Assembly (NCBI GenBank): GCA_023128895.1
Contig: JAGMDC010000003.1
Coordinates: forward strand, 155,651 to 219,650
DNA length: 64,000 nt
From: Candidatus Parcubacteria bacterium
GTDB taxonomy: Bacteria; Patescibacteriota; Minisyncoccia; Minisyncoccales; JAGMDC01
Direction: 5' to 3'
Part shown: positions 3,908 through 55,100 of the stretch, in pieces
Layout of the letters: every line of letters begins with the position of its first letter
How positions within the stretch are numbered: position 1 is the stretch's first letter
Translations under genes and position numbers: made by a program
The notes under the pieces: generated by a model
Database searches by the model: none
Seen by the model: the letters and a program-made list of their open reading frames with translations, nothing else
What the model was told of the DNA's origin: nothing

Positions 3908-4017
3908 AATATATTATATAATATCATAAAAAAAATTTCCTGGCAATTTTTGTAAAAAAAAGGTCCCAAAAATTCAAATGGAATTTCAGAACCAATGATT
4001 GTTCTATTGTCTCAACG

Positions 4018-4776: not shown

Positions 4777-4867
4777 TTTTTTCCTTTCCTCCTTTTGTTT
4801 CCTATACTCTACTTCCAAAATCCAAAAAATATGCGGGGAGAAAAAAAATATCCCCGACAAAATCTTT

Positions 4868-15743: not shown

Positions 15744-15773
15744 AAATTAATGATGACAATCCAATGCTATTTC

Positions 15774-16502
15774 TTATTCCATGTACCAATCCTCATATCC
15801 TTCTCTCTGGGCAAAAAGCATCCAATTAAAAGCACAATCTTTTCTGCCTTCAAACCTTCTGATAATAAAAAAATTCTCTGCTTTTTGAGCAATATACAAA
15901 CCGCAATCGTCTCTTGGCGTCAAAAGAATCTGGTATCCATACGTAGGGCTGATTGTTTCTAAAAATAATGGCTCAATATTTATCCTTGCCTCTCCGTCAA
16001 ATAATTGAGAAGACCCTGAGGTAATAAAATTATTTGTCGGCGCTTCTACTGCAGCCATTCTCCTCTTTCCCTTTGATGTCATAATTTTAGCGTTCTTTAC
16101 TCCAGTAACCGCTAAATCCCCTGCCACACTAGTGCAACTATCAATATTCAAATTTCCTTGAATATTAGCGTTTCCATGAACTGTTAAATTTCCATTTTCA
16201 ATTAAAGCGCCGTCCTGTGCTAAAAGCAATTTCTCCGCGCCGGTATTATTAATAAATTTTAATGTCCCTGCTGAATTAGAAAGTTTGTACACATCCTGTC
16301 CTGTCCCGCCGCCAATGCCTAAATCGCCTAATTTGTTCTGGTAATCAGGACCAGCGTTAATTGGAACAATTATATCTCCATTTACTTGAGGAGGAGAAAA
16401 AGGAGTTTCGCTCCAGGCAAAAATAATATAGCCCCCTAAGACGCTTAATAATAAAGCCCCAAAAACCAAAAAAATTGTTTTTTTAAAATTCAAAAAAGAC
16501 AT
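15774..16502 (-). CDS. anchored surface protein, short form (AWSEP motif, beta-helix-like stalk, conserved C-terminal domain)
   Basis: N-terminus FLNFKK + hydrophobic helix + FAWSETP. PINAGPDYQNKLGDLGIGGGTGQDVYKLSNSAGTLKFINN is nearly identical to the next gene. The C-terminus EAPTNNFIT...CAFNWMLFAQREGYEDWYME is shared with the 16502-18223 product. Confidence 0.75.
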   Translation of the reverse strand: MSFLNFKKTIFLVFGALLLSVLGGYIIFAWSETPFSPPQVNGDIIVPINAGPDYQNKLGDLGIGGGTGQDVYKLSNSAGTLKFINNTGAEKLLLAQDGALIENGNLTVHGNANIQGNLNIDSCTSVAGDLAVTGVKNAKIMTSKGKRRMAAVEAPTNNFITSGSSQLFDGEARINIEPLFLETISPTYGYQILLTPRDDCGLYIAQKAENFFIIRRFEGRKDCAFNWMLFAQREGYEDWYME

Positions 16503-18223: not shown

Positions 18224-18256
18224 AATTTTTAAAAAATAAACTTTAAACTTTAACTA

Positions 18257-19552: not shown

Positions 19553-19555
19553 AAT

Positions 19556-20617
19556 TTATTCTTGAACAACTATTTTAATGGGAATTCCGTCAGCTGTAAC
19601 AGCCATAGAAACAGGCACAGTGGGTTCAAATCTTTGAAATACTTTGCCCATTTTTCCAGTGCTGTTTATATCGTAATAATATAGAATAATACCGTCGGAA
19701 GAAACATAGTCAATTGTCTCTCTTCTAAAAGTTAAATTATAAACTGACGCGCTCCCGCTACAATATGAACCTGACCCGCTTGTAGTAATCTCAACTACAT
19801 CGCCTTGTTTTACATGATAGTACCAGGTTCCTGATTTTGTCTCGGTCTTGCATTCCCATCTCATACAGGAACTAAACGCCCAAAAAGTACACACTGAATA
19901 ACCATGAGCAGTGAGTTGTTCTTTCTCTTCTCCGTTGATATAAAGCTTAAAACTCTCCCAGTACCCTCTACACCTAGCGCTAACATTTGCAGTAACCTTT
20001 ATTACTCCTTCCCCATCTACTATTACCTCCTCCCCCTCTATTAGTGTCAAAGAATCGCTTCCGCTCTTGCCTATATGTAAAATCTCTTCTGTATTGTCGC
20101 TCTGAAACTCTTCTCCTATTGGCATTGCTCCGCCAGAATAACACATTAGTTTTCCGTCATTATTTGCCATCAAAAAACAATCATTAAATCCAGAAATATG
20201 AACATCACCCGCTCCGTCAATTTTCATTCTTTCTGTCCCCTGAGTATAAAACTCTATTTCTTCCTCTTCTTTATCTAAATAAATAGACGCTGCTGTTGGG
20301 GCGCCGGTATCTGACAATAAATGTAAATCATTATGCCCTTTTATGTAATCAGCTCTTTCAATATCTCCCTTATTACCATCAGCATTGAGATAAAGATGCC
20401 CGTCTGAAACAGTAAGAGCGGAAACAGTAAGATCCCCTGCTTTGGTCTGGGAATCACTGCTTATATTAATCAGTTCATAAATATTATCTGCTGGCAAAAT
20501 ATTTGGCGGGACATCGCCCGGCTCATCCCAAGCAGAAACAATATAGCCTATTACCGCGCTGGAAACCAAAATTACAGACGACAAAATAATTATTTTTTGA
20601 AAATTTGAACAAAGCAT
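19556..20617 (-). CDS. anchored surface protein, triplicated family member a (AWDEP motif)
   Basis: NFQK + helix + SAWDEPGDVPP. Blocks shared with the next two genes are GDIERADYIKG, EILHIGKSGSDS, FKLYINGEEKEQLTAHGY and SGSGSYCSGSASVYNLTFRR. Confidence 0.75.
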   Translation of the reverse strand: MLCSNFQKIIILSSVILVSSAVIGYIVSAWDEPGDVPPNILPADNIYELINISSDSQTKAGDLTVSALTVSDGHLYLNADGNKGDIERADYIKGHNDLHLLSDTGAPTAASIYLDKEEEEIEFYTQGTERMKIDGAGDVHISGFNDCFLMANNDGKLMCYSGGAMPIGEEFQSDNTEEILHIGKSGSDSLTLIEGEEVIVDGEGVIKVTANVSARCRGYWESFKLYINGEEKEQLTAHGYSVCTFWAFSSCMRWECKTETKSGTWYYHVKQGDVVEITTSGSGSYCSGSASVYNLTFRRETIDYVSSDGIILYYYDINSTGKMGKVFQRFEPTVPVSMAVTADGIPIKIVVQE

Positions 20618-20629
20618 ATTGAAAATTAA

Positions 20630-21646
20630 TTATTCAACAATAATAATAATCGGAATCCCATCAGCAGTAACAGCTATGGAAGTAGGGACCGCGAACTGTT
20701 TTTGTTTTGTCGCCTTTTCCATTTCTCCACTAGTATCTTTGTCATAGTAATACAAAATATCTTCTTCGGAAAAAACATACTCAACTCTATCTCTTCTAAA
20801 TGTTAAATTATAAACTGAAGCATTCCCGCTGCAATATGAACCGGACCCGCTTGTAGCAAGCTTAATTACATCGCCTTGTTTTATATGATAATACCAGGTT
20901 CTTGATTTTGCATCGGTCGCGCATTCCCACCTAAGGCAAGAGTGAAACCCCCACCAAGTACACTCCGCATAACCATTAGCAGTAAGTTGTTTTTCTAAAT
21001 TTCCATTGATATAAAGCTTAAAATTCTCCCAATACCCGCTGCACCTAGCGCTAACATACGCGGTAACCTTTATTACTCCCTCTTCGTCTATTATTGTCCA
21101 TGAATCGCTTCCGTTCTTGCCTATATGCAAAATCTCTACCTGCGTGCTTTGGAACTTATCATCTCCCGGCGCGCCTGTGCCCTCATAACATCCTATTTTT
21201 CCATTCTCATTCACCTCTAAAAAGCAATTCTTTAAGCCGGAAATATACATATCGCCGTTCCCATCAATCTTAACTCCTTCTATCGCTTGTGTGCTCAATT
21301 TTATTGCTTTCTCTCCTTTATCTAAATCAAGACAAGCATTATCCTCTGCGCTAGACCATAAATGCAAGCCATCCTGTGCTTTTATATAATTCACTCTTTC
21401 AATATCACCTCCTTTGCTGTCGTCCTCATTAAGATAAAGCTTGCCGCCTAAAGTCGTAAGTTCAGTAACAGTAAGGTCTCCGCTTTTTATTTGGGCCTCT
21501 GGACCGGCGTTGATTGGGGCATCAAGATTCCATGGCAAAGCCAATGGTGGCTCATCCCAAGCAAAAACCATATACCCAGTAATTGCGCTGAAAACTAAAA
21601 TTCCAGCAACTAAAGCAATTATTTTGTGAAAATTTAAATAAATCAT
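20630..21646 (-). CDS. anchored surface protein, triplicated family member b (AWDEP motif)
   Basis: NFHK + helix + FAWDEPPLALP. It has the same conserved blocks as its neighbours. Confidence 0.75.
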   Translation of the reverse strand: MIYLNFHKIIALVAGILVFSAITGYMVFAWDEPPLALPWNLDAPINAGPEAQIKSGDLTVTELTTLGGKLYLNEDDSKGGDIERVNYIKAQDGLHLWSSAEDNACLDLDKGEKAIKLSTQAIEGVKIDGNGDMYISGLKNCFLEVNENGKIGCYEGTGAPGDDKFQSTQVEILHIGKNGSDSWTIIDEEGVIKVTAYVSARCSGYWENFKLYINGNLEKQLTANGYAECTWWGFHSCLRWECATDAKSRTWYYHIKQGDVIKLATSGSGSYCSGNASVYNLTFRRDRVEYVFSEEDILYYYDKDTSGEMEKATKQKQFAVPTSIAVTADGIPIIIIVE

Positions 21647-21651
21647 ATAAT

Positions 21652-22656
21652 TTAAGGATTAGGAAATGAAATAGGCAGTCCGTCAGATGTTATTGCCACA
21701 GAGACAGGGACATCGGGATTATACTGATTTTCTACTTCATTCATCTTGCCCGTGCTATTGATATCATAGTAATATAAAATAGTGCCTTCGCAAGAAGCAT
21801 AGTCAATCACATCTCTTTTATATCTGAGTTTATAAACTGAAGCGCTCGCGCTAGTATTATAACTTGTTCCGCTTGTAGTAATCTTAACTACATCACTTTG
21901 CTTTATATGATAATACCAGATTCCTGAATTATTATTCTCCCAGGAATCATGCCATGGCCAATCGTATCGAAAGCCGCCGGAAACACTGATATGCTCTTTT
22001 TCTTCTCCATTGATGTAAAATTTAAAATCTGCCACTGTGCTAGAACCATACGCAGATATGCTGGCAGCCACCTTTATTACTACCTCTTGCTCTTCGTTTG
22101 GCACCGTCCAGGAATCGCTTGCGTTTATGTCTATATGTAAAATTTCTGTTTGGCTGGGCCAAAATTCATCACCGTCTGGTATCTGTCCGCCAACATAACA
22201 TCTTATTTTTCCATCTTCATCTACTTCTAAGAAACAATCACTTAATTTGAGAATATGCATTTTACCATTTTTATCAACTTTCATTTTTTCATCTCCTTTG
22301 ATAGAAAATTTTATCTCTTTATTTTGGTTATCTAAATGAACAGACGCTATATTAAACGGATCCGAATCTAAATATAAACCATCTTGGCCTTTTATGTAAT
22401 CTACCCGCTCAATATCTCCTTCTTCGCCATCATCATTAAGAAAAACCTTATTGCCCGAAGCAAAAAGAGAAGAAACAGCAAGAGCGCCTTGTTTGGTTTG
22501 AGCAACAGGGCCAATATTTATCGGCGTCGGCGTGTTTTCCTGCGGCTGCTCAGCAGTGGGACCATCCCACGCAAAAACAATATATCCCATTGCAGCGCTC
22601 AAAACTAAAACTCCGCCTGTAAGCGCAATTGTTTTTTGAAATTTTGAGAAATACAT
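21652..22656 (-). CDS. anchored surface protein, triplicated family member c (AWDGP motif)
   Basis: KFQK + helix + FAWDGPTAEQP. This is the most divergent copy and lacks the Cys pattern of a and b. Confidence 0.75.
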   Translation of the reverse strand: MYFSKFQKTIALTGGVLVLSAAMGYIVFAWDGPTAEQPQENTPTPINIGPVAQTKQGALAVSSLFASGNKVFLNDDGEEGDIERVDYIKGQDGLYLDSDPFNIASVHLDNQNKEIKFSIKGDEKMKVDKNGKMHILKLSDCFLEVDEDGKIRCYVGGQIPDGDEFWPSQTEILHIDINASDSWTVPNEEQEVVIKVAASISAYGSSTVADFKFYINGEEKEHISVSGGFRYDWPWHDSWENNNSGIWYYHIKQSDVVKITTSGTSYNTSASASVYKLRYKRDVIDYASCEGTILYYYDINSTGKMNEVENQYNPDVPVSVAITSDGLPISFPNP

Positions 22657-24845: not shown

Positions 24846-24912
24846 AAGCGATTTGCGTCGGATGTCGGCGGCTTCGCCGCCTCTGCCGCCGAGCCATTAC
24901 GCCGCTCGGCGG

Positions 24913-24992
24913 ATAAATAAATATAATCCCAGGGTTTTTTGAAATCAATTGAAAATTTTTGAAAGGAAATTTTAGGGTTCGAGCCGATTTTC
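24913..24992 (-). pseudogene. relic of a serine-recombinase 3' end (inverted relative to the intact gene)
   Basis: The minus-strand translation KKIGSNPKISFQKFSIDFKKPWDYIYL aligns with KKIGSDCTIASQKLSIDFKKPWNYLYF at the C-terminus of the 25091-26710 product. The DNA is also similar to 26455-26535. Confidence 0.55.
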
Positions 24993-25090
24993 TTCTTTCG
25001 CCTTCGGCGAAAGGCAAAGCGAAATTTTATTAATTTTATTAAATTGTCGGCGCAAGCGTTTCTTTTTTCAATTATCAAATTATTAATACT

Positions 25091-26710
25091 ATGATTAAAT
25101 ATTTCATCTATTGCAGAAAATCGTCAGAGGACGAAGAACGGCAAATCTTGTCTATTGAAGCCCAACTCGCGGAACTGCGCGAATACGCAAAGCAAAACGG
25201 GATTTTTGTTGTCCGCGAGTTTGTTGAATGTAAAACCGCCAAAGAGCCGGGGCGGGAAATATTTAATCAAATGCTTTCCGAGATTGAAAAAGGAAACGCC
25301 GAGGGAATTTTAGCGTGGAATCCAGACAGACTGGCTCGCAATTCTATTGACGGCGGAAAAATCATCTATCTCGTTGACACTGGAAAAGTCGCCTCGCTAA
25401 AATTCCCGACATTTTGGTTTGAGCCAACGCCGCAGGGAAAATTTATGTTATCTGTCGCTTTTGGGCAGGCAAAATATTACACCGACAATTTAAGAGAAAA
25501 CATTTTGCGGGGAATTAGGCAAAAAATTCGCAGAGGCGAACTTTCGGCAAAAGCCCCAATCGGATATTTCAACGAACCGAGATTGAGAACTATTGAACCA
25601 GACAGAAATACTTTCAAAAAAGTGAAAAAGATTCTGTGGGCTTTTGCCTCTGGAAAATACACGCTAACAGCAATTCAAAGCAAAATGTTTTCTCTTGGCT
25701 TGATTGGTAAGGACGGAAAACCGCCTCATCTGTCAACAATACAGAGTATACTCACAAATCCGTTTTACTACGGACATTTCAAATATCGCAATGAAATTCA
25801 TCAAGGAAGCCACAAGCCAATGATTTCAAAGAAACTTTTTGACAAAATCCAGCAAGCGCTCAAAGACAATAGCAAACCGCGACATAGTAAAAAAGACAAA
25901 GGTTTTCTTTTTTTGGGTTTTGCCAAATGTGGAGAGTGCGGCTATTGTATTACCGCTGAACGCAAGATTAAAAAAAACGGCAAGAAATACACATATTATC
26001 GCTGTACCAAAAAAAGTAAAATTCAAAAATGCTCTCAAAACCGATTTTTGCGGGAAGAAAAACTCGCGGAACAGGTAAAAGAAATTTGTCAAAAAGTTTC
26101 TTTGTCTGATGATTGGCAAGAAAAATATCTGAAAAAAGTTGATGAATGGGAAAAAGAAAATTGCACATTGTCAAATCTTTTCGCTCAAAATCTCAAAACA
26201 GAATTAAACAAAGTCAAAACAAAAATACAACGCCTCACTGACGCCTATTTGGAAGGCGGTTTTGAATTATCGGAATTTCAGCAAAATAAAAACGCCTTAA
26301 TGGCGCGAAAAAAAGATATTGAGGAAAAATTATCAGATTTTGAGCGAAAAGGAAATAATTGGCTCGGACTTGTTCGGAATTGGATAATTGAAGCCAATCA
26401 AGCTAAAAATCTCGCTTTAACAGAAAATTTTGCCGAGATGAAAAATTTTCTGAAAAAAATCGGCTCGGACTGTACAATCGCCTCTCAAAAACTTTCAATT
26501 GATTTCAAAAAACCTTGGAATTACCTTTATTTTGCGAAGCAAAACAAGGTTCTTGAAGCGAAAACGAAAGCGAAAGGTTCTTATTTTTTGCCTTTGCAAA
26601 CGAGGGGCGAAGCCCCGAGCGACGCGGAAAATCAAGTAAATCGTAAAATGTGGACCTGGCGGGAATCGAACCCACATCAGAGCAATGCGAATGCCCTCTT
26701 CTACCATTAA
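25091..26710 (+). CDS. large serine recombinase (resolvase domain + recombinase domain + zinc ribbon + coiled coil)
   Basis: YCRKSSEDEERQILSIEAQ (catalytic Ser region), DRLARN, CGECGYCITAE...YYRC zinc ribbon, and a long coiled coil. The last about 60 nt of the ORF are antisense to tRNA-Ala, so the true C-terminus is uncertain. Confidence 0.85.
   Translation: MIKYFIYCRKSSEDEERQILSIEAQLAELREYAKQNGIFVVREFVECKTAKEPGREIFNQMLSEIEKGNAEGILAWNPDRLARNSIDGGKIIYLVDTGKVASLKFPTFWFEPTPQGKFMLSVAFGQAKYYTDNLRENILRGIRQKIRRGELSAKAPIGYFNEPRLRTIEPDRNTFKKVKKILWAFASGKYTLTAIQSKMFSLGLIGKDGKPPHLSTIQSILTNPFYYGHFKYRNEIHQGSHKPMISKKLFDKIQQALKDNSKPRHSKKDKGFLFLGFAKCGECGYCITAERKIKKNGKKYTYYRCTKKSKIQKCSQNRFLREEKLAEQVKEICQKVSLSDDWQEKYLKKVDEWEKENCTLSNLFAQNLKTELNKVKTKIQRLTDAYLEGGFELSEFQQNKNALMARKKDIEEKLSDFERKGNNWLGLVRNWIIEANQAKNLALTENFAEMKNFLKKIGSDCTIASQKLSIDFKKPWNYLYFAKQNKVLEAKTKAKGSYFLPLQTRGEAPSDAENQVNRKMWTWRESNPHQSNANALFYH
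26580..26635 (-). repeat. nested-hairpin element, short copy inside the recombinase 3' end
   Basis: The minus strand reads GATTTTCCGCGTCGCTCG-GGGC-ttc-GCCC-CTCGTTT...AAAATAAG, with the same flanks as the HAD-gene copies. Confidence 0.5.
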
Positions 26711-26721
26711 AATACAGGCCC
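26651..26721 (-). tRNA. tRNA-Ala (anticodon CGC)
   Basis: Hand fold: acceptor GGGCCTG/CAGGTCC with the G3:U70 alanine identity pair, anticodon stem GGGCA/TGCTC, loop TTCGCAT, T-arm GTGGG-TTCGATT-CCCGC. 71 nt, no encoded CCA. Confidence 0.85.
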
Positions 26722-26733
26722 ATATTGTTTTTG

Positions 26734-26804
26734 TCGGGATGCCGAGATTCGAACTCGGGCTGCCGCCTCCCGAAGGCGGTATGCTACCATTACACCACAC
26801 CCCG
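26734..26804 (-). tRNA. tRNA-Pro (anticodon CGG)
   Basis: Hand fold: acceptor CGGGGTG/CATCCCG, anticodon stem CCGCC/GGCGG, loop TTCGGGA, T-arm CCGAG-TTCGAAT-CTCGG. 71 nt, no encoded CCA. Confidence 0.85.
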
Positions 26805-31892: not shown

Positions 31893-31965
31893 ATTTTTTT
31901 ACCACCTTTCTCCTATTTTTTTATTCTTATGTACCTTGATTCAATATCAAATTATTGCGACTTCG

Positions 31966-32050
31966 CCGCATAATTGTTCGCTCGGTCAAAATACAAACAA
32001 ACTCGCTTCGCTCGCTTGTTTGTATTTTTTCCTCGCTCTCAATTATCGCA
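31966..32050. repeat. nested-hairpin element, intergenic copy
   Basis: GCATAATTG-TTCGCTCGGTC-[AAAATACAAACAA actcgcttcgctcgc TTGTTTGTATTTT]-TTCCTCGCTCTC-AATTATCGC. Confidence 0.7.
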
Positions 32051-33357: not shown

Positions 33358-35412
33358 ATTATTGATTTGTTTCCAGTTTGTTTCGTCTAATACGATTAAT
33401 TGGTCCTCACCTATTATATATAAGTAGTCATTGATATAAATCGCGCGCTTAGCCGCAATACCGCTAACAGCCCGCTTAAGCGCCAACTTGTCCTGTTCGT
33501 AAGAAAAAATATAACCGCCTTTGCTGCCCGGCAAAAAGAATATCTTGTGTTTTGTGTCTAAAAGAAACGCGTGATGAGTATTAAGAACATCTGACCAATG
33601 TTCGTCTAAAATATATTTGTCGGCTTCCTTTGGCTCGCTCGGCGAACTTACATCAAACAGAGAAATTTTCACTTTCCAGCCCTCTTTGCCTATTCCTAAA
33701 ATTTTGTCTTCGGTAATTGGATGCAGATACGAAGAATATCCCGGAATTTTCAATTCTCCTTTTAATTCCGGATTATACGGATCTGACAAATCCAGAACAT
33801 AAAACGGATCTATCTGCCTGTATGTTACTACATATCCCTTATTACCGACAAACCTCACAGAATAAATTTTTTCTGTAACGCCTAAATCTTTCACAGAACC
33901 GGTGATGTTCAAATTACTGTCCGCGACATAAACATCATTAGCGCTCTCCCCTACATTCCAGAACATACCTCCCATACCCCTGTCCCCAATCGTCACGGCC
34001 ACTCTTAAATAACCTTGATATTCGTCCAAAGAAAATTGATTCAATGGCTTGCCCGGAAATACTCCGTTTGCCGCAAGAGCAAACCCGTCTAATTTTATTT
34101 TCACAATTCCTGTTTTCTCAAAATCTCTGCTGTGTTTCGCGTAATAATCATCCATCCTATTGGTAAATTCGTTTTCTATTCTCATTCTTTCATCATCGCT
34201 TAAAGAACTCTGAAACTTATCAAGAATAACTCCGAACTCCACCATTTTAGCTCTATCGCTTATATCAAGGTCTTTGAGTTTTTCTAATTTTTCAATTACC
34301 CAGGCAGGAACTATGTCTTGACAATCTTTTTGAAAAAAATCATAAAAGAAATTAATCACGCTCTCATAATAAGAATAACTGATATAAATTCCATTTTTCG
34401 ACATATAAACAACTGATTGGCTTGAAGAACCAACAAACGACACAGTTTTCTCAATCTCGCCTGTTTCTGGATTTAATACCATAGCGCTGTAAGTTATATC
34501 CACTGGTACTGGAACTCTTGGGTAGTAAATTTGCGAACACCCAATCTCTAATGCTTTGCCTTCTATATATAATGGCCTGATTGGGCAAGGCCTGTAAGTG
34601 TCAATTCTGCTTTTAACAACTAAATATACTTTTCCCTGATATAGGCGGGACGAAACCAAATAATTTCTATTTTCCAATTCCATATCCCATTTCTTGTTTG
34701 GCTTCTCTGGATTAGACACATCATAGCCGATAATTTCCTGACCTGAAAAAACCACTAAAATATTTTCTGATAAAAGCAGATTTCCAGTTTGTTCAATTTC
34801 CGAATCAATTTTCAAATCAGAAGGCGGAAACGCTTTTATTGCTTTAATCCCCCTGTTCTGGGGTTTGGGAATTTCTATCCCCGGCGCGATTTCGTCCATA
34901 TCAAAAGCCCTTATCGGAAAATACCATCTCTGCGGAGAAAAATAAATTTCTTTGCCGTCTGTTTTGACAATGTCCGGCTCGTCAATTCCCGCTGTTTGGA
35001 CAGTTGTTTCTGACACGCGCTCCATTGTTTCTTCTCCTGCTCCAATCCCTGCTTCAAGTGTCGGGACTGACATTCCCTCTGCTACATCCATTCCTTTCCT
35101 CACTCCAGTAATTGAAATCCCTTCATAATATCCAGTTATTTCTGCTGCGCTCGACTCCAAATAATCCTTAAATTCCTGTTCCGAAGAAAATTTGGCAATT
35201 CCTTCCAATGACGCGGGACCCGGTTCAGGCTTTTCTGGTTTTGGCGCTAAAATATCAGATAAAAATGGAATATTAATCCGCTCCATAAATGGCGCGATAG
35301 GCGTTGTTGAAAAAGAAATATTTTGATATTGAGAAAACGCAAAACCGAAAATCACAGCAACCACAACACATAAACAAACCAATAAAAGTTTAGAATTAAT
35401 TTCTTGTTCCAT
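33346..35412 (-). CDS. secreted beta-propeller domain protein (COG4880-like)
   Basis: YSVRFVGNKGYVVTYRQIDPFYVLDLSDPYNPELKGELKIPGYSSYLHPI is typical of the bacterial/archaeal beta-propeller family. N-terminal TM or signal segment. Confidence 0.7.
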   Translation of the reverse strand: MEQEINSKLLLVCLCVVVAVIFGFAFSQYQNISFSTTPIAPFMERINIPFLSDILAPKPEKPEPGPASLEGIAKFSSEQEFKDYLESSAAEITGYYEGISITGVRKGMDVAEGMSVPTLEAGIGAGEETMERVSETTVQTAGIDEPDIVKTDGKEIYFSPQRWYFPIRAFDMDEIAPGIEIPKPQNRGIKAIKAFPPSDLKIDSEIEQTGNLLLSENILVVFSGQEIIGYDVSNPEKPNKKWDMELENRNYLVSSRLYQGKVYLVVKSRIDTYRPCPIRPLYIEGKALEIGCSQIYYPRVPVPVDITYSAMVLNPETGEIEKTVSFVGSSSQSVVYMSKNGIYISYSYYESVINFFYDFFQKDCQDIVPAWVIEKLEKLKDLDISDRAKMVEFGVILDKFQSSLSDDERMRIENEFTNRMDDYYAKHSRDFEKTGIVKIKLDGFALAANGVFPGKPLNQFSLDEYQGYLRVAVTIGDRGMGGMFWNVGESANDVYVADSNLNITGSVKDLGVTEKIYSVRFVGNKGYVVTYRQIDPFYVLDLSDPYNPELKGELKIPGYSSYLHPITEDKILGIGKEGWKVKISLFDVSSPSEPKEADKYILDEHWSDVLNTHHAFLLDTKHKIFFLPGSKGGYIFSYEQDKLALKRAVSGIAAKRAIYINDYLYIIGEDQLIVLDETNWKQINNLKF

Positions 35413-35478
35413 AATTTTGAGCGAGGAATAAATGCGGAAATGAATTTTCGCATTTATTCCGAGCGATTAATTATGCGG
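35409..35478. repeat. nested-hairpin element, copy in the beta-propeller gene leader
   Basis: The minus strand reads CCGCATAATT-AATCGCTCGG-[AATAAATGCG aaaattcatttc CGCATTTATT]-CCTCGCTC-AAAATTATGG. Confidence 0.7.
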
Positions 35479-36165
35479 CTTTGCCGCAATAATTTTTGGT
35501 TTATTAGTTCGCGCCAAAAAATATTTCAAAAAAATATTTTTTGATTAAACCAATAAATCCTTTCATTTTATTATAATACTCACTCTTATTGTACCACTTC
35601 CTAAAAATAGCGCAAAACAAAACTGTCAAAGGTTCAACCTCCGACAGTAAAAATTTCCAGTATGATATACTAAAAATACAAAGACTCATTTTCCGAACCA
35701 TCACCGGATGGCGGCGTGCCCGGGACTACCGGGATAGGAAATGGGTCGTTTTTTTTCATTTTCAGATTCTACACAAGTTTTTTACACATTCAACTCCTTC
35801 AAAAACAAAAGATTGAATCCCTAATTTTTTGGCTACTTCAATATTCTCCTTTGAATCGTCAAAATAAATACATTCTTCGGGTTTTAAATTATTCTCTACT
35901 AATAAGTTTTTGTAGGCTTCCGGATTTGGTTTAACAAATCCTGTTTGCCAAGAATAATAAACTTTATCAAAAATTTCTTCTAAAAATGGAAATGTTTTTT
36001 TATAATAATTTGCTCTTTCAATAAAATTATTCGACAAAACAAAAATTTTAACGCCTCTATTTCTTAATTTTTTAACCAATTCAATCATCTCGGGCACTTC
36101 TTTTTCTGCGCTAAACCAGAAATCAAAAAATTGTTCTTCTGCTAGTTCAATGCCCCATTTTTCTA

Positions 36166-36265
36166 AATGAACCCTACGGGATACATTTTCTGCGTTCGCT
36201 CTAGAATATAAACAAACTTCGCTTCGCTCGTTTGTTTATATTCCTCTCGCTCACTTGAAAATAAG
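36166..36265 (-). repeat. nested-hairpin element, HAD insert 2 (100 nt)
   Basis: The minus strand reads CTTATTTTCAAGTGAGCGAGAGG-[AATATAAACAAAC gagcgaagcgaa GTTTGTTTATATT]-CTAGAGCGAACGCAGAAAATGTATCCCGTAGGGTTCATT. Confidence 0.75.
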
Positions 36266-36385
36266 ACTTCCAATAATCAAAAGAACTACCGGCATTCGGC
36301 TTTCTCGCTTTTGCCATTATGTTTTTCAACGCAGGTAAAAAATCTTCTTTTGAAACGCCAAATTCTTTTTGGAATCTATCGCTTA

Positions 36386-36489
36386 AATGAATCCCCAGAC
36401 GAAGTCCGGGGATACATTTTCCGCGTTCGCTCGGAAGCCCAAGCGAGAGTATTCTCGCTTGGGCTTCCCTCGCTTCACTTGAAAATAAG
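36386..36489 (-). repeat. nested-hairpin element, HAD insert 1 (104 nt)
   Basis: The minus strand reads CTTATTTTCAAGTGAAGCGAGG-[GAAGCCCAAGCGAGA ata CTCTCGCTTGGGCTTC]-CGAGCGAACGCGGAAAATGTATCCCCGGACTTCGTCTGGGGATTCATT. Confidence 0.75.
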
Positions 36490-36577
36490 GACTTTGGATA
36501 AAAATTCCATTAAGGTCAAAAATAATTGCTTTTATCATATTTTTTATATTTTACCACTTTATAAAATTTAGCGCAAA

Positions 36578-46278: not shown

Positions 46279-49200
46279 TTATTTTTCCTCGCAGACATCT
46301 ATTCTGTTGTCCTGTCCGTACTTCTCTCCAACGTCAAACGCGCAATAGCCGGTATAACAGTCATCATTGCTGTCGCAGTCGCCTTCTCCGGCATAACATT
46401 TACAATTAGTAGTGCAGTAATTCCATCCCCATAAAGAAGAGGTATGGCAGGTTTCGTCTTTGCCGTTCCCGTCTATGCCCGACTTATCAAAACCTTTCTC
46501 ATATGTCTTGTCACGAGCAGAAGTCTGGCTTTTGTTTTCTAAAATCTGTTCCCCTTGTTCAAGCAAATACCTGGTCCTCTCAAACAGTTCTTTAAGTGTA
46601 TTGTTTATTCTTTCATCCACTTGTCTGGTTCCTGGTCGGCGGGGCTGGTCTGGTTGGCTCGGTTGACTTGGTAACTCTCGGCCTCGGCTTGGTTGGTCTG
46701 GTTGAGTCGGTTGGGTCGGTGACTCTCGGCTTGATTCTTCTTGGCCGATCTTTTTCCATCCCGCGCCTATTCTAACGCCATCTTCGTCGTAAATAAACCA
46801 ACACGTTTCTTTCTCCCCGTCGCCGTCTATATCTATTTTATCATTATTAGAAATCTTATAAAATTTTCCGTTATACGCGCAGTCTGTATACTTTGGAGCG
46901 CATATTCCGTGCGAAACATACGGATCAAAAAGACAATAAGGCCAGCAACAATTCCAATTTTCAAATAATTCTGAACATTTCTCTCCTATTAATGAACAAT
47001 TTTTGTCAGTCAATCCAAATGTTATTTTTGTTACATTTGATTTATCAGCTTTGTTTCCAATATCATCTTTACAAGCAAGATATACTCTCTTGAATCCCAC
47101 TGGACCAATATCTGGAAAAGTACAGGTATGGGAGGTTGTACCCTCCCCCTTTTGACAATCAAGCGTCATTTCGTCATAACCTTGTTTGGTTAAAGAAATT
47201 CTGCACCAAGTTTTTTTCTGAGTAGTGGCAACAATATCCGGAGTATAATTATGGATAAATCTATCATAGTCATAACCAAGAGACCAATAATGTGCCTCAT
47301 CTGGAAAGACCAAAATCCTGTTAGCTTCTTTGCCGTCTACGCTAATTGTATGGATAATAGGAGGCATTTTATCTCCACCAGGGACTATTGAACTGCCTTG
47401 CCAAGAACCGTCAGCCAAACAAGTTTCGTCAACACCGTCATTATCCACATCTTTCTTATCTCCAACACTGTAATAAGAACAAGAAATATCTCCGCTATTA
47501 TACTTAAACTCTAATAATGCTTTATGAGACGAGTTGCAGCAGCAATCCACAGAATATTTATCTTCAAATATAATAGCAATTGTCGCGTCCTGATTAAATA
47601 GATAATAATTGAAAAGTTCAATTAATGTTGCTTTTGGAATTGTAAATGTTTTAGAACTAAAATTCTCACAATAATCTATTGAACCGCCGAAATTGCCTAT
47701 TTCGCCTAATTTTATTTCGCCATATCCCTTGGCAACAGCAATCTTGCAAAATTCTTTTGAATATGAACTTGAATCGCTATCATTGGTTTTCTTTCCGTCA
47801 TAATCGCCCTTGACGAAAACTGTTAATTTAGCGTCTGATGTTGGAAAACAGTCATTCCCTGTACAGGTAAATGTGAGATAATTAGCGCAGCCCCCTATCG
47901 ACGGCACTGCCCAAAACCCAGATTCTGGACAATCTTTTTGCTGAGTTTGAGAATATGCGGCTTGCTTATTTTGACAATAAACACAGCTTTTGCCTGCTGG
48001 AGCGCACGATTTCTTTGATGTTCCTGAATCAAAAACGCAATTGTTATTAGAGCAACAATCTGCATCTTTCCAACATTCCTCCCCGTCCTTGGAACAAAAA
48101 TCACTATGCTTCATTTTCAGCGCTTCATGCGCGTTCACAATCCCGGCGCCGGATATAGTTGTTGAACCAACATTCGCGGATACATCAAAAGTCGTTTGAA
48201 TATTGGTATTTTCACTCTTGCCTGCTTCAACGCTCGTTCTTGTAAGATTGGTTTTTCTATAAATATCATCAGTGTTCCCATAAAAAGATTCTCGCGAATT
48301 TGCAGCGCCTCTTTCTATATTTTGTACATTTAATCTATCTATTTGTTCTTTTATCTCTGTTAATCTGTCGCTTATCCTGTCTAATATTTCCCTTTTATAT
48401 CTATCGTATTCTCCGGGCTGGATAGAACGATCCCTGCTCGGCTGACCCGGCTGTCTTGGCTGCATCGGCTGTCCTGGACGACCCGGCTGTCTTGGCTGCA
48501 TCGGCTGTCCTGGACGACCCGGCTGGGCAGGTTCACTCGGCTGGGTTGGTTGGGTCGGTTGGTCTGGCTGGTCTTTTTCCTCGCAGACATCCATTCTGCT
48601 GTCCTGACCATATTTTTCTCCGACATCAAACGCGCAATAGCCGGTATGGCAATCGTCATTACTGTCGCAGTCGCCTTCGCCGGCATAACATTTGCAATTA
48701 GTAGTACAATAATTCCATTCCCATAAAGGAGAAGTATGGCAGGTTTCTTCTTCTGGCTCTGGCTGGGTAGGCTGACTTGGTCGGCCCGGTAACCCTGGTT
48801 CGCTCGGCTGACGCGGCTGACCCGGCTGTCTTGAACTTTCTTTTTTAACAACCTCAAAACGTCCATCCCAAGTAGTAGCTGTTTGATTTCCTTTTACTAA
48901 TTTTAAGTTCCAACTTCCTAATGGAGCGCTTAAAGAAAGAGTATAATTATATGTGCCGCCTTGTGAAGTTATCATTTGGAAAAAGTTGACATAATTCCCG
49001 TTTGAGTCAACAATTCTTAACGACCATCCTATATAAGAATTGTTTGGCTCCACAATTATTTCAACGGTTTCTCCCTGCTCATAAGTTGTTTCAGACACCC
49101 TTACTTTAGAAGATGGCCACGCGGGTTGGCCCGGCTGGCTTGGTTGGCCCGGCTGGCTTGGTTGGCCCGGCTGGCTTGGTTGGCCCGGCTGGCTTGGTTG

Positions 49201-50829
49201 GCCCGGCTGGCTTGGTTGTCCCGGCTGGCTTGGCTGTCCCGGCTGGCTTGGCTGGCTTGGTTGGCCCGGCTTGGAAATTACTTTAGGATGATAAGCTGTT
49301 TCCTTTAGAATTTGCCTTACCTTTTCATTTGAAATTCCAGGATTTTGCGAAAGAATTAAAGCCGCAACTCCAGACACCATTGGCGCTGACATACTTGTTC
49401 CGCTTGCTATATAATATTTTCCCCCAATTATGCTGATTCCATCTCCGTACATATCTGTGCCTCTAGCGCGCAAAGAAAGAATTACGGCTCCCGGCGCTGA
49501 AATATCAACCAAGCGCCCATAATTAGACCATTTTGCCTGCTTGTTCAACGGCGTAGTTGCCGCAACACTGATAGTGGTTAAATGACTACCTGGAAACGTA
49601 AATCTTCCATCGCTGCTATCATTTCCAGCAGAAGCGACTAACACGCATCCTTTTTTGTGAGCGTAATTCAATATCTCTTCAAGCGCAGCAGGCGCTTTTG
49701 CGACAATTCCGCCCCAGCTCATATTTATCACATCAGCGCCGTTATCAACAGCGTACATAATTGATTCTATCATATCGGTTCCATCGGCAGAGCCATCTTT
49801 ATCAAAAAATTTCAGCGACATTATTTTAGAATACCAGGAAATACCAGCCACTCCTTTACTGTTGTTTGTGGAAGCGGCTATTATGCCGGCGCAATGAGTC
49901 CCGTGCCCAAAATCATCAGCAGGGCTCTTATCATCATACGCAAAATCCCACCCATTAACATCGTCAATATATCCGTTATTGTCATCGTCTATTCCATTGC
50001 CGGCAATCTCGCCAGAGTTTATCCAAATATTGCTTTTCAAATCTGTGTGAGACATATCCACTCCTGTATCAATAACTGCCACAACAACATCTTTGCTTCC
50101 TTTTTGTATATCCCAGGCATCGCCTGCTTTAATTACATGTAAACCCCACTGATCTTTATACCATTGTTTCCAAGCGCCTGTTGTGGAATAATATGTATCA
50201 TCTGGAGTTGTTGTATGAACAGACACAACAAAATTTGTTTCCACATATTCTACGTTTTCAGATTTTCCATATTTCTCAATAATATCTGAACTTAAAACGC
50301 TTAAATCAAAACTAACGCGATACAAATTTGAAAACAAAGGCGACTTTGATACTCTTGATATCTTTAATGGCTTCTCCCTTGTCAAAGATATAATATCCTG
50401 ATTTATCCTGCTGCTGGTAACCCCTGTTTTGACTTTTACCAATACCTCGCTAAAAGTATGCGATGGTATTATTCTTTCGCTCTTAAAAATCTCATTCATT
50501 TTTGCCCTTGTGGTAGTACCTACAAACCCTGTTCCCCTTGTCAACTTCCAGGGATCTAAAATTTCTTCTTGATGTTCTTCCTGAAAACGAACTACTGCCT
50601 CGCGAGTCTGTTCGTCAAACCTGCCAGTTGCCTCCACTTCTGGATAAGTTTCTCTTAAATATTCCTGCATAAACTTCACATCGTCTCCGGTTCTATTTAG
50701 AGATAAATTTCTGTCCAAATCCACGCTTCGCATTGCTGCGCGCGCTTCGCGCGCGCCGATTCCCTCACACAAAGAAAACGCGAAAATAACAGCGAGCGCA
50801 AAAATACAAAACTTAATATTTATTTTCAT
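46279..50829 (-). CDS. giant secreted subtilisin-like (S8) protease 1 with PG-binding-like domain, Pro-rich linkers and Cys-rich modules
   Basis: Signal peptide, then LSLNRTGDDVKFMQEYL...GRFDEQTREAVVRFQ. Catalytic residues VAVIDTGVD, HGTHCAGIIAA and SGTSMSAPMVSG. (QPGQPS)n linkers. Two copies of CHTS.LW.WNYCTTNCKCYAGEGDCDSNDDC.TGYC. Confidence 0.85.
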   Translation of the reverse strand: MKINIKFCIFALAVIFAFSLCEGIGAREARAAMRSVDLDRNLSLNRTGDDVKFMQEYLRETYPEVEATGRFDEQTREAVVRFQEEHQEEILDPWKLTRGTGFVGTTTRAKMNEIFKSERIIPSHTFSEVLVKVKTGVTSSRINQDIISLTREKPLKISRVSKSPLFSNLYRVSFDLSVLSSDIIEKYGKSENVEYVETNFVVSVHTTTPDDTYYSTTGAWKQWYKDQWGLHVIKAGDAWDIQKGSKDVVVAVIDTGVDMSHTDLKSNIWINSGEIAGNGIDDDNNGYIDDVNGWDFAYDDKSPADDFGHGTHCAGIIAASTNNSKGVAGISWYSKIMSLKFFDKDGSADGTDMIESIMYAVDNGADVINMSWGGIVAKAPAALEEILNYAHKKGCVLVASAGNDSSDGRFTFPGSHLTTISVAATTPLNKQAKWSNYGRLVDISAPGAVILSLRARGTDMYGDGISIIGGKYYIASGTSMSAPMVSGVAALILSQNPGISNEKVRQILKETAYHPKVISKPGQPSQPSQPGQPSQPGQPSQPGQPSQPGQPSQPGQPSQPGQPSQPGQPAWPSSKVRVSETTYEQGETVEIIVEPNNSYIGWSLRIVDSNGNYVNFFQMITSQGGTYNYTLSLSAPLGSWNLKLVKGNQTATTWDGRFEVVKKESSRQPGQPRQPSEPGLPGRPSQPTQPEPEEETCHTSPLWEWNYCTTNCKCYAGEGDCDSNDDCHTGYCAFDVGEKYGQDSRMDVCEEKDQPDQPTQPTQPSEPAQPGRPGQPMQPRQPGRPGQPMQPRQPGQPSRDRSIQPGEYDRYKREILDRISDRLTEIKEQIDRLNVQNIERGAANSRESFYGNTDDIYRKTNLTRTSVEAGKSENTNIQTTFDVSANVGSTTISGAGIVNAHEALKMKHSDFCSKDGEECWKDADCCSNNNCVFDSGTSKKSCAPAGKSCVYCQNKQAAYSQTQQKDCPESGFWAVPSIGGCANYLTFTCTGNDCFPTSDAKLTVFVKGDYDGKKTNDSDSSSYSKEFCKIAVAKGYGEIKLGEIGNFGGSIDYCENFSSKTFTIPKATLIELFNYYLFNQDATIAIIFEDKYSVDCCCNSSHKALLEFKYNSGDISCSYYSVGDKKDVDNDGVDETCLADGSWQGSSIVPGGDKMPPIIHTISVDGKEANRILVFPDEAHYWSLGYDYDRFIHNYTPDIVATTQKKTWCRISLTKQGYDEMTLDCQKGEGTTSHTCTFPDIGPVGFKRVYLACKDDIGNKADKSNVTKITFGLTDKNCSLIGEKCSELFENWNCCWPYCLFDPYVSHGICAPKYTDCAYNGKFYKISNNDKIDIDGDGEKETCWFIYDEDGVRIGAGWKKIGQEESSRESPTQPTQPDQPSRGRELPSQPSQPDQPRRPGTRQVDERINNTLKELFERTRYLLEQGEQILENKSQTSARDKTYEKGFDKSGIDGNGKDETCHTSSLWGWNYCTTNCKCYAGEGDCDSNDDCYTGYCAFDVGEKYGQDNRIDVCEEK
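49124..49272. repeat. tandem 18-nt repeat (about 8 units) encoding (PGQPSQ)n in protease 1
   Basis: GGTTGGCCCGGCTGGCTT is iterated with minor variants. A further 36-nt x2 repeat lies at 48444-48527. Confidence 0.9.
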
Positions 50830-52124: not shown

Positions 52125-55100
52125 TTATTTTTCCTCGCAGACATCTATTCTGCTGTCCTGTGTATATTTCTCTCCAACGTCAAACGCGCAATAGCCGGTA
52201 TGACAGTCATCATTGCTGTCGCAGTCGCCTTCGCCTGCGTAGCATTTACAATTAGTAGTGCAATAATTCCATCCCCATAAAGAAGAAGTATGGCAGGTTT
52301 CGTCTTTGTTGTTCCCGTCTATGCCCGACTCATCAAAACCTTTGTCATATATCCCGTCACGAGCAGAAGTTTGTCTTCTCTCATTTAAAATCTGTTCCCC
52401 TTGTTCAAGCAAATACCTGGTCCTCTCAAACAGTTCTTTAAATGTATTGTTTATTCTTTCATCCACTTGTCTGGTTCCTGTTCTGCCGCCCGGGATCTCG
52501 CCAGAGGGCTGTCTGGGCTGGGTAGGTTGAGTCGGAAACCTTGATCGGCCCGGTTGTTCTGGTTGGTCTGGCTGAGCAGGTTGGGTCGGTTGGGTAGGTT
52601 GGGTCGGAAACCTTGGTCTGCCCGGTTGTTCTGGTTGGTCTGGTTGGTCTGGTCTGCCCGGTTGTTCTGGTTGGTCTGGTTGGTCTGGTTGGTCTGGTTG
52701 GTCTGGTCTGCCCGGTTGTTCTGGTTGGTCTGGTTGGTCTGGTTGGTCTGGTACTCGCGGTTGCATTGGCTGCCTCGGCTGGGATGTACCAAAATCTATC
52801 CATTCTCCATTAGGAGTACATGTCTCTTTTCTGCCGTCTCCATCTATATCCAATTTATCAAAATTATTATAATAAGAACCTTTAAAAACGCAACTTTTAT
52901 CTATGGGAATGCATACTTTCTTTGAAAAAAATAGATCAAGCACACACTTCGTAGAACAGCAATAATAAGTTCCTGGGCATTCTTCTCCTTCAGATAAACA
53001 ATTTCCTTCGATCAAATAAAATCCTACTGACGGAGTACTAAGTTCACTTGGCTTATTGCCAAATTGGTCTTTACAAGCAAAATACAAAATCTTTGGGCCC
53101 AAAGAACCAACATCAGGGATAGCGCAAGTATGAGAGGTTGTACCCTCCCCCTTCTGGCAATTAATCGTCATCGCGTCGTAACCCTGTTTTGTTAGAGATA
53201 TCCTGCACCAGGCATTTTCATCTGTATTAAAAACTAAATCCGGAGTGCTATCGTTAACACCAGCCGCAACACAAAAATAATAAATATAATCATTAGTGAG
53301 CGCTCTCACGCCGCCAACAGATAACATATAAGCGAGAGGGAACAAAGTAGGCGGAGAAAGAGGATTTTTTCTTGGTATATGAGAATTACCCTCCCATGAA
53401 CCATCAGATAAACAAGTTTCATCAATACCGTCATCGTCTACATCTTTCTTGGCGCCAGCATTGTGATAAGAACAAGAACTGCCTATGCTATACGTGAACT
53501 CTAATCTTGCTTTATGCGCGGCATTACAGCAGCAATCCACGCCGCCGGAAGGAAAAGGAGCGAAGTTGACAGTAATAGTCCCATCTTTGGCAAAACTATC
53601 ATAATTAAAATAATCAATCATATCTGACTGAGAAATTATAAATGATTCAGAGCCATAAGTTTCGCAATAATTTATTGTTGAACTCTTATCATTTTTTTTG
53701 AACTTGCCGAGTTTTCCTACTCTACTTTTTATAAGGGATCTCTTAATATAAATTTCGCAATATTCCAACATGGAAATACGGTCGGTTGAATCTGTTTTTA
53801 CGCCGTCATAATCGCCTTTAATCCAAGCGGTTAATTTAGCGTCTGAAATCGGATGACATTCTCCATCATTGCAGGTGAATAGAAAATTAGTGTTACAATT
53901 TATTTCTTGGCACTTTTCTTCTTGCGTCTTAGAATAGTACGCCTTCTTTATCTTGCAAAACACGCAACTCTTATCAGCAGGGATGCATATTTTTAGAGAT
54001 GTTCTCGAGTCAAAAACGCAATTATTAGAACAACAATCTGAATCATCCCAACATTGTTTGCTATCATTAAAACAAGGCAAAGGCAACAGGGCCTGATATG
54101 CATTGACAATTCCAGCACCAGGTATTTTATCAGATCCTAACCCAGCATCACCAGGTAATCTAAACATCTTATCATTACTATCAATAAAAATATCTTGTTC
54201 GCTTTCATCGCTGATTAATGTCCTTGTTAAATTAGTGCCTTTGTTATATGTCCCGCTGCGAGCAGAAATCTGTCTTCTCTCATTCAAAATTTGTTCCCCT
54301 TGTTCAAGCAAATATCTGGTCCGCTCAAACAGTTCTTTAAGTGTATTGCTCAGTTCTTCATCCACTTGCCTGGTTCCTGTTCTGCCGCGGGGGACCTCGC
54401 CAGATGGCTGTCTGGGCTGGGTAGGTTGAGTCGGAAACCTTGGGCGGCTCGGCTGGTCTGGCTGGTCTGGCTCTCGCGGTTGTGGTTGTGTCGGCTGGTC
54501 TGGCTGCTGCCCTGTAGAGGATACAATACTGAAATAGTTGTTGCTTCTGTCAAAACCTGAACCGACTACTTCAATGAAAATTTTGTATTTGGTTCCTAAA
54601 TTTTGACCTGCCGGAACTTTCCATGAATAACTGCCTGAAGAAAATCTATATGTAAGAAGCTTATTATCACCGCAAGGTTTGTCAGGAGAACAATTTGGAT
54701 TGTTTGAATGGTCTTCTAAATAAACAAATACTTCTGTTCTGACTGCAGAATTGATGCTCCATTTAATATTATATGTTTGCTCCTTCTGCCATTGCTCTCC
54801 TCCATTAGGAGAAGTGATTGTTAATCCTGATTCCTTCGGCTGTTCTGGCTGCTTTGGTTGTTCTGGTTGGCCAGGTCTGCCTGGTAAGCTTGGCTGTTCT
54901 GGCTGTTCTGGTTCTGGTTGTTCTGGTTCTGGTTGTTTTGGTTGTTCTGGTTGGCCTGGTCGGCCCGGTTGTTCTGGTTGTTCTGGTTCTCGCGGTTGTG
55001 GTTGTGTCGGCTGCTCTGGCTGTGTCGGCTCGTCGGGTCTCTGTTCTGGCTGTTCTGGCTGTTCTGGCTGTTCTGGCAAATACGCTGTTTCTTTTAAAAT

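Follow-up and report, generated by a model that had tools for sequence, protein, structure and literature searches.

The window analysed here is a 64 000-nt stretch of contig JAGMDC010000003.1 (positions 155 651 to 219 650 of the forward strand) from a Candidatus Parcubacteria bacterium (GenBank assembly GCA_023128895.1). A gene of the haloacid dehalogenase (HAD) family is located on its minus strand, with the ATG at 36538 and the stop codon at 35762 (Table 1). The gene is split by two related inserts, el1 and el2, both in the orientation of the gene. They share CTTATTTTCAAGTGA at the 5′ end and GAGCGAACGCrGAAAATGTATCCC...TTCATT at the 3′ end, and the 18-nt core occurs twice in the window, against 0.09 occurrences expected by chance. 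An earlier analysis made from the letters alone (the sequence-only reading) had described the gene as broken twice by related inserts in the same orientation, and this was confirmed by the sequence and by the shared core. In public records, the third coding segment is annotated as a HAD fragment of 108/129 aa; no record with a sequence identical to P0027, the protein cited for this segment, was found.

The extent of the inserts had to be corrected. Lengths of 104 and 100 nt had been proposed, with the junctions IQS-LSD and YWK-LEK and a HAD protein of about 190 aa after deletion. Deletion of 104 + 100 nt does leave an open frame of 190 aa, assigned to Pfam HAD_2/Hydrolase, but the product is two residues short at each junction, where intact homologs read IQSPYLSD and YWKPYLEK. 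The CCTTAT and TCTTAT formerly counted as the start of the element are host Pro/Ser-Tyr codons. The earlier boundaries were off by 6 nt, and the inserts sit between (C/T)CTTAT and TTA. Corrected removal (98 + 94 nt) gives a protein of 194 aa with ...IQSPYLSDRF... and ...YWKSYLEKW... at the junctions. The corrected lengths are still 2 and 1 mod 3, and the frame argument built on them stands.

Comparison with the HAD orthologs of relatives, suggested in the sequence-only reading, showed genes that read straight through with both sites empty. Uninterrupted ortholog DNA in contig L032 carries AGTCCTTATTTGAGCGA and AAACCTTATTTAAAAAA at the two sites, which equal the reconstructed empty sites, and that in contig L033 carries CCATATTTAAGCGA and CCTTATTTAAAAAAG. 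The insert-free junction strings were AGTCCTTATTTAAGCGAT and GAAGTCTTATTTAGAAAAATGG, and the empty-site junctions AAAGTCCTTATTTAAGCGATAG and GGAAGTCTTATTTAGAAAAATGG. Between the filled HAD sites and the empty sites of the orthologs, no host bases were gained or lost overall. The frame is restored by deletion because insertion changed no net host bases, and its restoration is thus not evidence of splicing. The exact boundaries slide over a 4-nt repeat, ATTT, found at both ends (−2 to +2 nt for el1).

A protein search with the spliced product returned 671 HAD homologs, mostly from Parcubacteria and 60–80% identical. The reconstructed 194-aa protein was aligned without gaps to 118 homologs. It deviates at 3 of the 72 conserved columns, the median for the homologs being 2, and 58 of the 118 homologs do equally well or worse. 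Relaxed selection or further frameshifts in the flanking segments, which the sequence-only reading named among the marks of a plain pseudogene, were not seen; judged from this alignment, the coding sequence is without decay and conserved like functional homologs. Every frame through the inserts meets a stop inside the insert or at its 3′ edge. A full-length HAD protein therefore cannot be made from the present gene, which is most likely inactivated by insertion and simply turned off, a state that may be reversible.

Over 900 nt of the locus, four assemblies, each from a different sample, are 100% identical, and the interruption is therefore not an assembly accident. Six assemblies cover the locus, five from ZHAN22-2 samples and one from a Logan run, and each carries both inserts; their contigs are 99.9–100% identical, and a seeming difference in L119 is a 100-N scaffold gap. 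No insert-free allele was found in these six assemblies, traced via three neighbouring proteins, or among ~5.8 billion clustered proteins, where the nearest full-length HAD protein is 80% identical. The lack of decay and the uniform assemblies are consistent with a dispensable gene that was recently knocked out twice in a near-clonal population. Together with the double hit, they may also be compatible with inserts that are tolerated.

To find relatives of the inserts, the core pattern was searched against one genome per prokaryotic species and against a metagenome contig collection. Thirteen close copies at 12 independent loci were recovered: in the window, in two Candidatus Nealsonbacteria metagenome-assembled genomes (CSMAG_2115, with seven copies in the loci examined, and CSMAG_1561) and in three low-GC metagenome contigs. 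The remaining matches to the core pattern were due to chance and close to the expected number. Elements E3, E4, L109 and L033 were treated as divergent subfamilies. Close copies fall into two size classes, a short form of 85–98 nt (el1, el2, L029 and L005) and a long form of 162–178 nt. The long form has an extra domain of ~90 nt inside its 3′ hairpin, and this domain includes unpaired stretches that are conserved. The copies have discrete ends and their flanks are unrelated from copy to copy, and they are therefore discrete units. An uninterrupted HAD ortholog, P0002, lies in CSMAG_2115, a genome with long-form copies of the same family. A genome with the family and empty HAD sites, set beside a source genome with filled ones, is by sequence comparison the classic signature of insertion. 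Two hits by a mobile element, as suggested earlier, are thus supported by the empty ortholog sites and by the dispersal of the family over unrelated loci.

Rfam scans at gathering and permissive thresholds were run on the window, both inserts and the long forms. No Rfam family matched the short or the long form, even at E ≤ 10; the scans otherwise gave only transfer RNAs (tRNAs) and an unrelated DUF3800-IX motif. A limited literature search found no published description of the family, which is apparently an undescribed, compact repeat of the Candidate Phyla Radiation. A link to phages was rejected after two pattern scans of viral contigs gave chance matches only. A chimeric six-frame query for open reading frames (ORFs) reading through the elements gave 6488 word candidates, none with E ≤ 10. 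The sequence examined amounted to ~82 kb of the source genome (~10% of the genome, with a partial Pfam scan) and ~55 kb from relatives, scanned selectively. No full-length autonomous element, with left and right cores 0.3–2 kb apart, was found in the Parcubacteria sequence examined.

All close copies have the same layout. A flank ending in TAT is followed by TTTCAAGTrA(A)GCGAG and a perfect hairpin of 14–20 bp, then by GAGCGAACGCrGAAAATGTA, a 3′ hairpin and TTCAT. The 3′ hairpin is of the type CCCC...GGGG with 3 to ~100 nt inside. In el1, the order is TTTCAAGTGAAGCGAG, a 16-bp perfect hairpin, GAGCGAACGCGGAAAATGTA, a 10-bp 3′ hairpin and TTCAT. The core of el2 is as in el1, but its central hairpin (15 bp, with GCGAAGC as the loop) is unrelated and its 3′ hairpin has 3 bp. 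The sequence of the central hairpin is thus wholly different between el1 and el2, and it also varies among copies within one genome. Compensatory double changes were counted at 8 of its 24 predicted pairs, with G-U intermediates on the sense strand. Fold z-scores against shuffled sequences were −8.7 and −4.2 for the two inserts as RNA (el1 being the −8.7) and −7.1 and −3.7 as DNA, and folding was consistently stronger on the strand carrying the TTCAT end. The ends of the element, TTTCAAGT... and ...GGnTTCAT, are not inverted repeats of each other, and no terminal inverted repeats are present. The name 'nested-hairpin family' used in the sequence-only reading describes these elements fairly, since inner hairpins are bracketed by GAGCGA and a further hairpin is nested in one L109 unit.

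The loop of el2 belongs to a motif, GCGAGCGAAGCGA(A)G, that contains GCGAAGC and recurs in hairpin loops or spacers of el2, E4 and the CSMAG copies. It is also found on the minus strand of L003 (~7340–7390), upstream of the long-form element of that contig. GCGAAGC forms an unusually stable DNA mini-hairpin, and its presence in loops might hint at a function as single-stranded DNA.

The segment GAAAATG, which directly precedes the 3′ hairpin, is complementary to the two junctions of the element, TAT^TTTC on the 5′ side and CAT^TT on the 3′ side (^ marks the junction). The minimum-energy fold switches between pairing with the 5′ junction and pairing with the 3′ junction according to the amount of flank included. 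This segment is referred to below as the guide. The divergent subfamilies have ATAATT(TT) or ATAAT as flanking repeat, together with TTAATTATG, CAATTATG or AAATTATG as internal segment. The guide of E3, AATTATG, pairs with CATAATT and AATAATT. That of E4, CAATTAT, pairs with GATAATTG (ATAATTG) and AATAATT, and that of L033, AATTATGT, with GTATAATT and CATAAT. On the sequences compared, the internal guide and both junction sequences change together between subfamilies.

Table 1. Segments of the split HAD gene, its inserts and elements of the divergent subfamilies. Coordinates are window positions unless a contig is named.
Feature	Coordinates	Strand	Description
HAD segment 1	36485..36538	-	codons 1-18, MIKAIIFDLNGIFIQSPY; contains HAD motif I
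Insert el1	36387..36484	-	98 nt, short form
HAD segment 2	36261..36386	-	codons 19-60, LSDRFQ...FDYWKSY
Insert el2	36167..36260	-	94 nt, short form
HAD segment 3	35762..36166	-	codons 61-194 and stop, LEKWGIELAEEQ...NLCRI*
Terminator-like hairpin	35622..35648	-	downstream of the HAD gene
E3, subfamily-2 relative	35411..35496	+	abuts the start codon of a minus-strand 688-aa gene, antisense
E4, subfamily-2 relative	31950..32046	-	5′ leader of a 285-aa gene, sense
L109 tandem pair, subfamily 2	L109 2560-2760	-	source genome, ~9 kb past the window end
L033 hybrid-type element	L033 650-760	+	between a TGGTATAAT promoter-like box and the ATG of the HAD ortholog

In E3 the order is ATAATTTT, GAGCGA, hairpin, GAGCGA, TTAATTAT (complementary to the flanking repeat), GCGGCTTTGCCGC, A and ATAATTTT again. 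E4 directly follows a promoter-like site read by eye as TTGACA-17-GATAAT. As el2 and E4 carry the same type of central hairpin, hairpin modules cross subfamilies. An EncFtn-like gene has the two L109 units, in antisense orientation, immediately in front of its ATG. Within the 3′ hairpin of the second unit, a further hairpin, CCCCCACACC...GGTGTGGGGG, is nested between direct repeats of 5 nt (CTTTG). Tandem copies abut exactly, at ...AAT^TTTC and at ...ATAATTAT^. The HAD ortholog behind the L033 element is P0001, the closest one (80% identical).

The GATAAT box marks the start of E4, and the CAT of a start codon marks that of E3 and of the L109 units. Elements of the ATAATT-targeting subfamily seem to insert at −10 boxes and around start codons. 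Assembly of the source organism stopped inside the E4 hairpin (window 31955–31994) in four independent Logan assemblies (L121–L124), and the elements appear to break short-read assemblies.

The target of the close family was read from its 13 copies. The 5′ flank is TTTAT in eight, CTTAT in three, and ATTAT and TCTAT in one each (NTTAT in 12/13). The terminal TTCAT is present in 12 of the 13, and the element is followed by TT in 11, against a background TT frequency of 0.13. The preferred site is thus about (T/C)TTAT^TT, the complement of the guide. The HAD sites, AGTCCTTAT^TTA and AGTCTTAT^TTA, fit this target and correspond to two Pro/Ser-Tyr-Leu motifs that are found throughout the protein family. 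Both inserts have the orientation of the gene because the target is asymmetric, and one small gene was hit twice because the target is present twice in it.

Between 74 and 84% of the target-like sites in the window are in coding sequence. Nevertheless, the HAD gene is the only one of the 12 independent close-family loci where the element is inside a coding body. L005 is inserted on the last codon of a gene, to which it adds eight residues, and at L012 and L029 the element provides the stop codon of a convergent gene; the other loci are intergenic. If genic insertions were neutral, at most one or two genic insertions among 11 loci would be expected with P ≤ 6e-4. The family avoids coding sequence. 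Fourteen copies (12 of the 13 close ones, E3 and E4) were scored against their neighbouring genes, and 6 were in sense and 8 in antisense orientation. L032 and both units of the L109 tandem, recovered subsequently, are antisense as well, and in CSMAG_2115 six of the seven elements are antisense to the local genes.

We consider it probable that two diverged, structured, non-autonomous mobile elements inserted independently in the HAD gene, in the manner of the palindrome-associated transposable elements (PATEs). Each element inserted at a copy of the preferred target (C/T)TTAT^TT and would have moved as a miniature single-stranded DNA of the IS200/IS605 family, on which a Y1/HUH transposase would act in trans. 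The 5′ flank TTTAT/CTTAT would serve as the transposon-adjacent motif and the terminal TTCAT as the transposon-encoded motif. The internal guide GAAAATG, 5′ of the 3′ hairpin, would pair with both junctions. If the elements are IS200/IS605-like, excision would be scarless and each interruption would be reversible. A double-stranded circle or synapsis of 94–98 bp would be physically implausible. A single-stranded intermediate is favoured for this reason, and because terminal inverted repeats are lacking and the structure is strand-specific. The enzyme, this intermediate and the reversibility are what we infer from the comparison below, and the elements are presented as working like a PATE, not as a proven member of that group.

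Insertion of IS200/IS605 elements takes place on the 3′ side of a specific tetra- or pentanucleotide and duplicates no target, excision leaves a scarless donor joint, and cleavage sites are recognised through base pairing with guides that lie 5′ of subterminal hairpins (PMC3201880). The Geobacillus elements have TTTAT and TTCAT as flank motifs and TTCAC as terminal motif, and motif and guide covary; PATEs are protein-less, are mobilised in trans, often have a guide-RNA scaffold at the right end and have tandem-compatible ends (PMC10055086). Scarless excision is the norm for this class (PMC3201880, PMC10055086). The named relatives compared were IS608, ISDra2 and ISGst1-5. Like PATEs, the present elements lack terminal inverted repeats and have strand-specific hairpins, one central and one 3′ in every copy. 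They appear to be inserted directly 3′ of a TTNAT-type motif, without net change of host bases at the HAD sites, and their last bases, TTCAT, nearly repeat the flank TTTAT. Their guide is located beside the foot of the right hairpin, is complementary to the motifs and covaries with them. Tandem abutment is possible, and the structured 3′ domain of the long forms sits where PATEs often have the guide-RNA scaffold. The elements differ from PATEs in that the two bases after the element are also conserved and in that no TnpA or TnpB was found in the sequence scanned. The short forms (85–98 nt) are also smaller than typical PATEs.

Several observations weigh against an IS200/IS605-like origin. No Y1_Tnp, OrfB or other transposase was found among the 20 ORFs scanned or the Pfam labels of flanking genes, and no TnpB was seen in the partly scanned source sequence or in the selected sequence of relatives. 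In IS608 the left and right hairpins are alike and each end has its own guide, whereas the left hairpin of the present elements is hypervariable, unlike the right one. A single guide forms 5–7 canonical pairs with both junctions here, instead of the two 4-nt guides with non-canonical pairing of IS200/IS605. In the source genome, three elements are on the minus strand and three on the plus strand, no bias of the lagging-strand type being apparent. At the HAD locus itself, two diverged elements within one 585-nt gene are more easily explained by a tolerated-insertion model, and the coding sequence, on its alignment, carries no further damage. Finally, the ATTT present at both ends of the inserts makes a 4-bp target-site duplication equally possible; the search for such duplications proposed in the sequence-only reading thus fits insertion without duplication and a 4-bp duplication alike.

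Other elements moved on single strands offer a more distant comparison. REP/BIME/REPIN repeats are short hairpin repeats and mostly extragenic, as here, and are thought to be moved by RAYT (TnpA-REP), an HUH/Y1 enzyme acting on single strands. REPs conserve the stem and a GTAG-type 5′ tetranucleotide; in the present family, the stem is variable and the flanks and core are conserved.

A transposon that duplicates 4 bp is the main DNA-level rival. The inserts would then be conventional double-strand miniature transposons (DDE-type or other) that duplicated ATTT, the gene would be dead and excision imprecise. Nearly all copies indeed have ATTT, or most of it, at each end, and in 11 of 13 the TTCAT is followed by TT. 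The CTTTG repeat around the nested hairpin of L109 and the GAGCGA around inner hairpins are bracketing repeats that suggest repeated, duplication-generating insertions of palindromic units. Classical miniature inverted-repeat and foldback elements (Correia/NEMIS, Nezha) resemble the family by their size, structure, lack of coding capacity, mostly intergenic location and short direct repeats. However, terminal inverted repeats are absent, and the flanking repeat is fixed within each subfamily and complementary to an internal segment. This constancy, with the internal segment changing together with the repeat between subfamilies, is not predicted by duplication. Furthermore, the sequence common to both ends is reduced to AT in L007 and to TAT in L022. 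We therefore regard a duplicating transposon as unlikely, while keeping it as a genuine competitor.

Scarless excision of the DNA in a subpopulation could restore the HAD gene, as in phase variation. The sequence-only reading had raised excision in part of the population. Excision at the DNA level is plausible as a mechanism, since the host neither gained nor lost bases on insertion and since scarless excision is the norm for the most similar class; the wild type could thus be regenerated from a scarless insertion. Mini-elements of the IS605 family excise scarlessly at sub-percent frequency (PMC10055086), and the coding sequence is undecayed. A working switch would require two independent excisions, though, and neither the insert-free allele nor a transposase turned up within the proteins, assemblies and scanned sequence described above. 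We hold such a switch to be improbable.

In a further reading, to which little weight is given, the elements would be guide-bearing mobile nucleic acids of 90–180 nt, structured as RNA or single-stranded DNA. The 5–7-bp guide would direct both targeting and removal from DNA or transcript, and HAD would be expressed. The extra domain of the long forms would then be a catalytic or protein-recruiting core.

If they were removed from RNA alone, the inserts would represent very small introns of a new class that splice by themselves or with the help of a protein. The guide would align the exon ends much as P1/P10 do in group I introns, and HAD would be functional. Both HAD inserts are in sense orientation, their exact removal yields a conserved, undecayed ORF, and they were present in all six assemblies covering the locus. 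The guide pairs across both junctions, a feature shared with group I/II introns and IStrons, whose internal guide pairs on either side of the insertion point; pairing with the exons would be possible after ligation too. The sense strand has the stronger structure, with G-U pairs and CUUG/GAA-type loops, and the long forms have the extra ~90-nt domain with conserved unpaired stretches. IStrons show that IS605-type elements can also be spliced. The sense orientation in HAD, however, is set by the asymmetric target, and the short forms found there are those without the extra domain. No ribozyme or intron similarity was found in Rfam, and no Intron_gpI match at E ≤ 10 was obtained for either form. 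The last base of the insert can only be C, A or U within the boundary slide, so that the terminal G of group I introns is missing. Group II hallmarks (GUGYG...AY, domain 5 and domain 6) are equally absent: no Rfam match or domain-5-like hairpin was found, and GUGAA/GUGAG is found 6 nt into the element. In size, the elements fall short of known introns, and they occur in both orientations, with over half of the copies antisense to neighbouring genes. An efficiently spliced element should accumulate in genes in the sense orientation, but coding bodies are avoided at 11 of the 12 independent loci, and the family is for this reason not considered intron-like. The intron-like removal raised in the sequence-only reading is thus unsupported, and we find it very unlikely.

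The inserts were also compared with elements that are tolerated during translation. Rickettsia palindromic elements (RPEs) are likewise palindromic repeats of ~100 nt found inside protein-coding genes, where they are in frame and translated. The HAD inserts differ in being 1 and 2 mod 3, and translation cannot run through them into the rest of the gene. Hopping of ribosomes over the inserts in the style of phage T4 gene 60 is most improbable and was rejected: strong hairpins do follow the take-off site and the 0-frame through el1 ends in UAA exactly at the 3′ junction, but the take-off codon UAU does not match the CAU before the resume point, the gaps (94–98 nt) are about twice that of gene 60, the codon after take-off is UUU and not a stop, and the same elements are located mainly outside genes in both orientations.

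At the level of the gene, the result is ordinary: insertions have disrupted a dispensable HAD phosphatase of a reduced Parcubacteria genome. The element family is of greater use, as its covarying guide gives a sequence-level handle on target choice. If the elements are IS200/IS605-like, single-strand 'peel and paste' transposition would extend to very small forms in this phylum, and guide-RNA scaffolds possibly likewise. Annotators should in that case know of them, as they split genes, sit on start and stop codons and break assemblies. If they were removed from RNA, they would be the smallest bacterial introns known.

Other features were recorded near the HAD gene and elsewhere in the window. 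The DUF3800-IX RNA match of Rfam (35683–35751, plus strand; 51.3 bits against a gathering threshold of 36.8) has a three-way junction followed by a T-run. It lies on the strand opposite to the HAD gene, in the interval from the stop codon of that gene to its terminator hairpin. Pfam scans of ten window ORFs and the Pfam labels of neighbouring genes showed no DUF3800 gene. At L012, a long-form element lies 7 nt upstream of a DUF3800 gene.

A perfect palindrome of 31 nt, TAACTGTCGGAGGTTCAACCTCCGACAGTTA, is located at 7665–7695. It is in frame and encodes LTVGGSTSDSY within a minus-strand gene (7100–8755) for a 551-aa POR_N/thiamine pyrophosphate oxidoreductase. Its arm has the sequence of the HAD terminator hairpin (35648–35622), and it is also present in the diverged strain L106. 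This palindrome looks like an in-frame insertion of the Rickettsia RPE type, more closely than the HAD inserts do.

A large serine recombinase (Resolvase + Recombinase + Zn_ribbon_recom) is encoded at 25091–26710 on the plus strand and adjoins two tRNA genes (26651–26804, minus strand) and a gene for a CCA-adding enzyme. Its counterpart in CSMAG_2115 (L008 370–1389) is syntenic and shorter (339 aa), with a long-form element 100 nt upstream. The region upstream of the recombinase in the window (~24860–25040) is non-coding, GC-rich, structured and conserved between both genomes. The recombinase was rejected as the mobilising enzyme of the family, being syntenic by tRNA and cca in both genomes, and the element is probably too short to synapse and circularise as double-stranded DNA.

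The L106 strain (JGI sample 3300040951) is 96–98% identical to the window, and its sequence ends short of the HAD locus. Near its position 5199, a 73-nt frameshifting deletion relative to window 6820–6892 was found close to the 5′ end of a dihydroorotate dehydrogenase-like gene (5815–6924, minus strand). This difference was considered as a possible element and rejected, as it is a plain deletion. A neighbouring gene of 280 aa (window ~3996–4785) is replaced by non-homologous sequence in this strain.

Eight paralogous genes with pilin-like N-termini (M.F..FQK.IAL...AW.EP) occupy 13788–22656 on the minus strand, and neighbours share long stretches of 77–88% DNA identity. Two giant paralogous ORFs of 1516 and 1487 aa are located at 46279–50829 and 52125–56588, also on the minus strand. 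They contain 9- and 18-nt periodic repeats of the GGYTGG type and share blocks of 235–300 nt at 88–93% identity.

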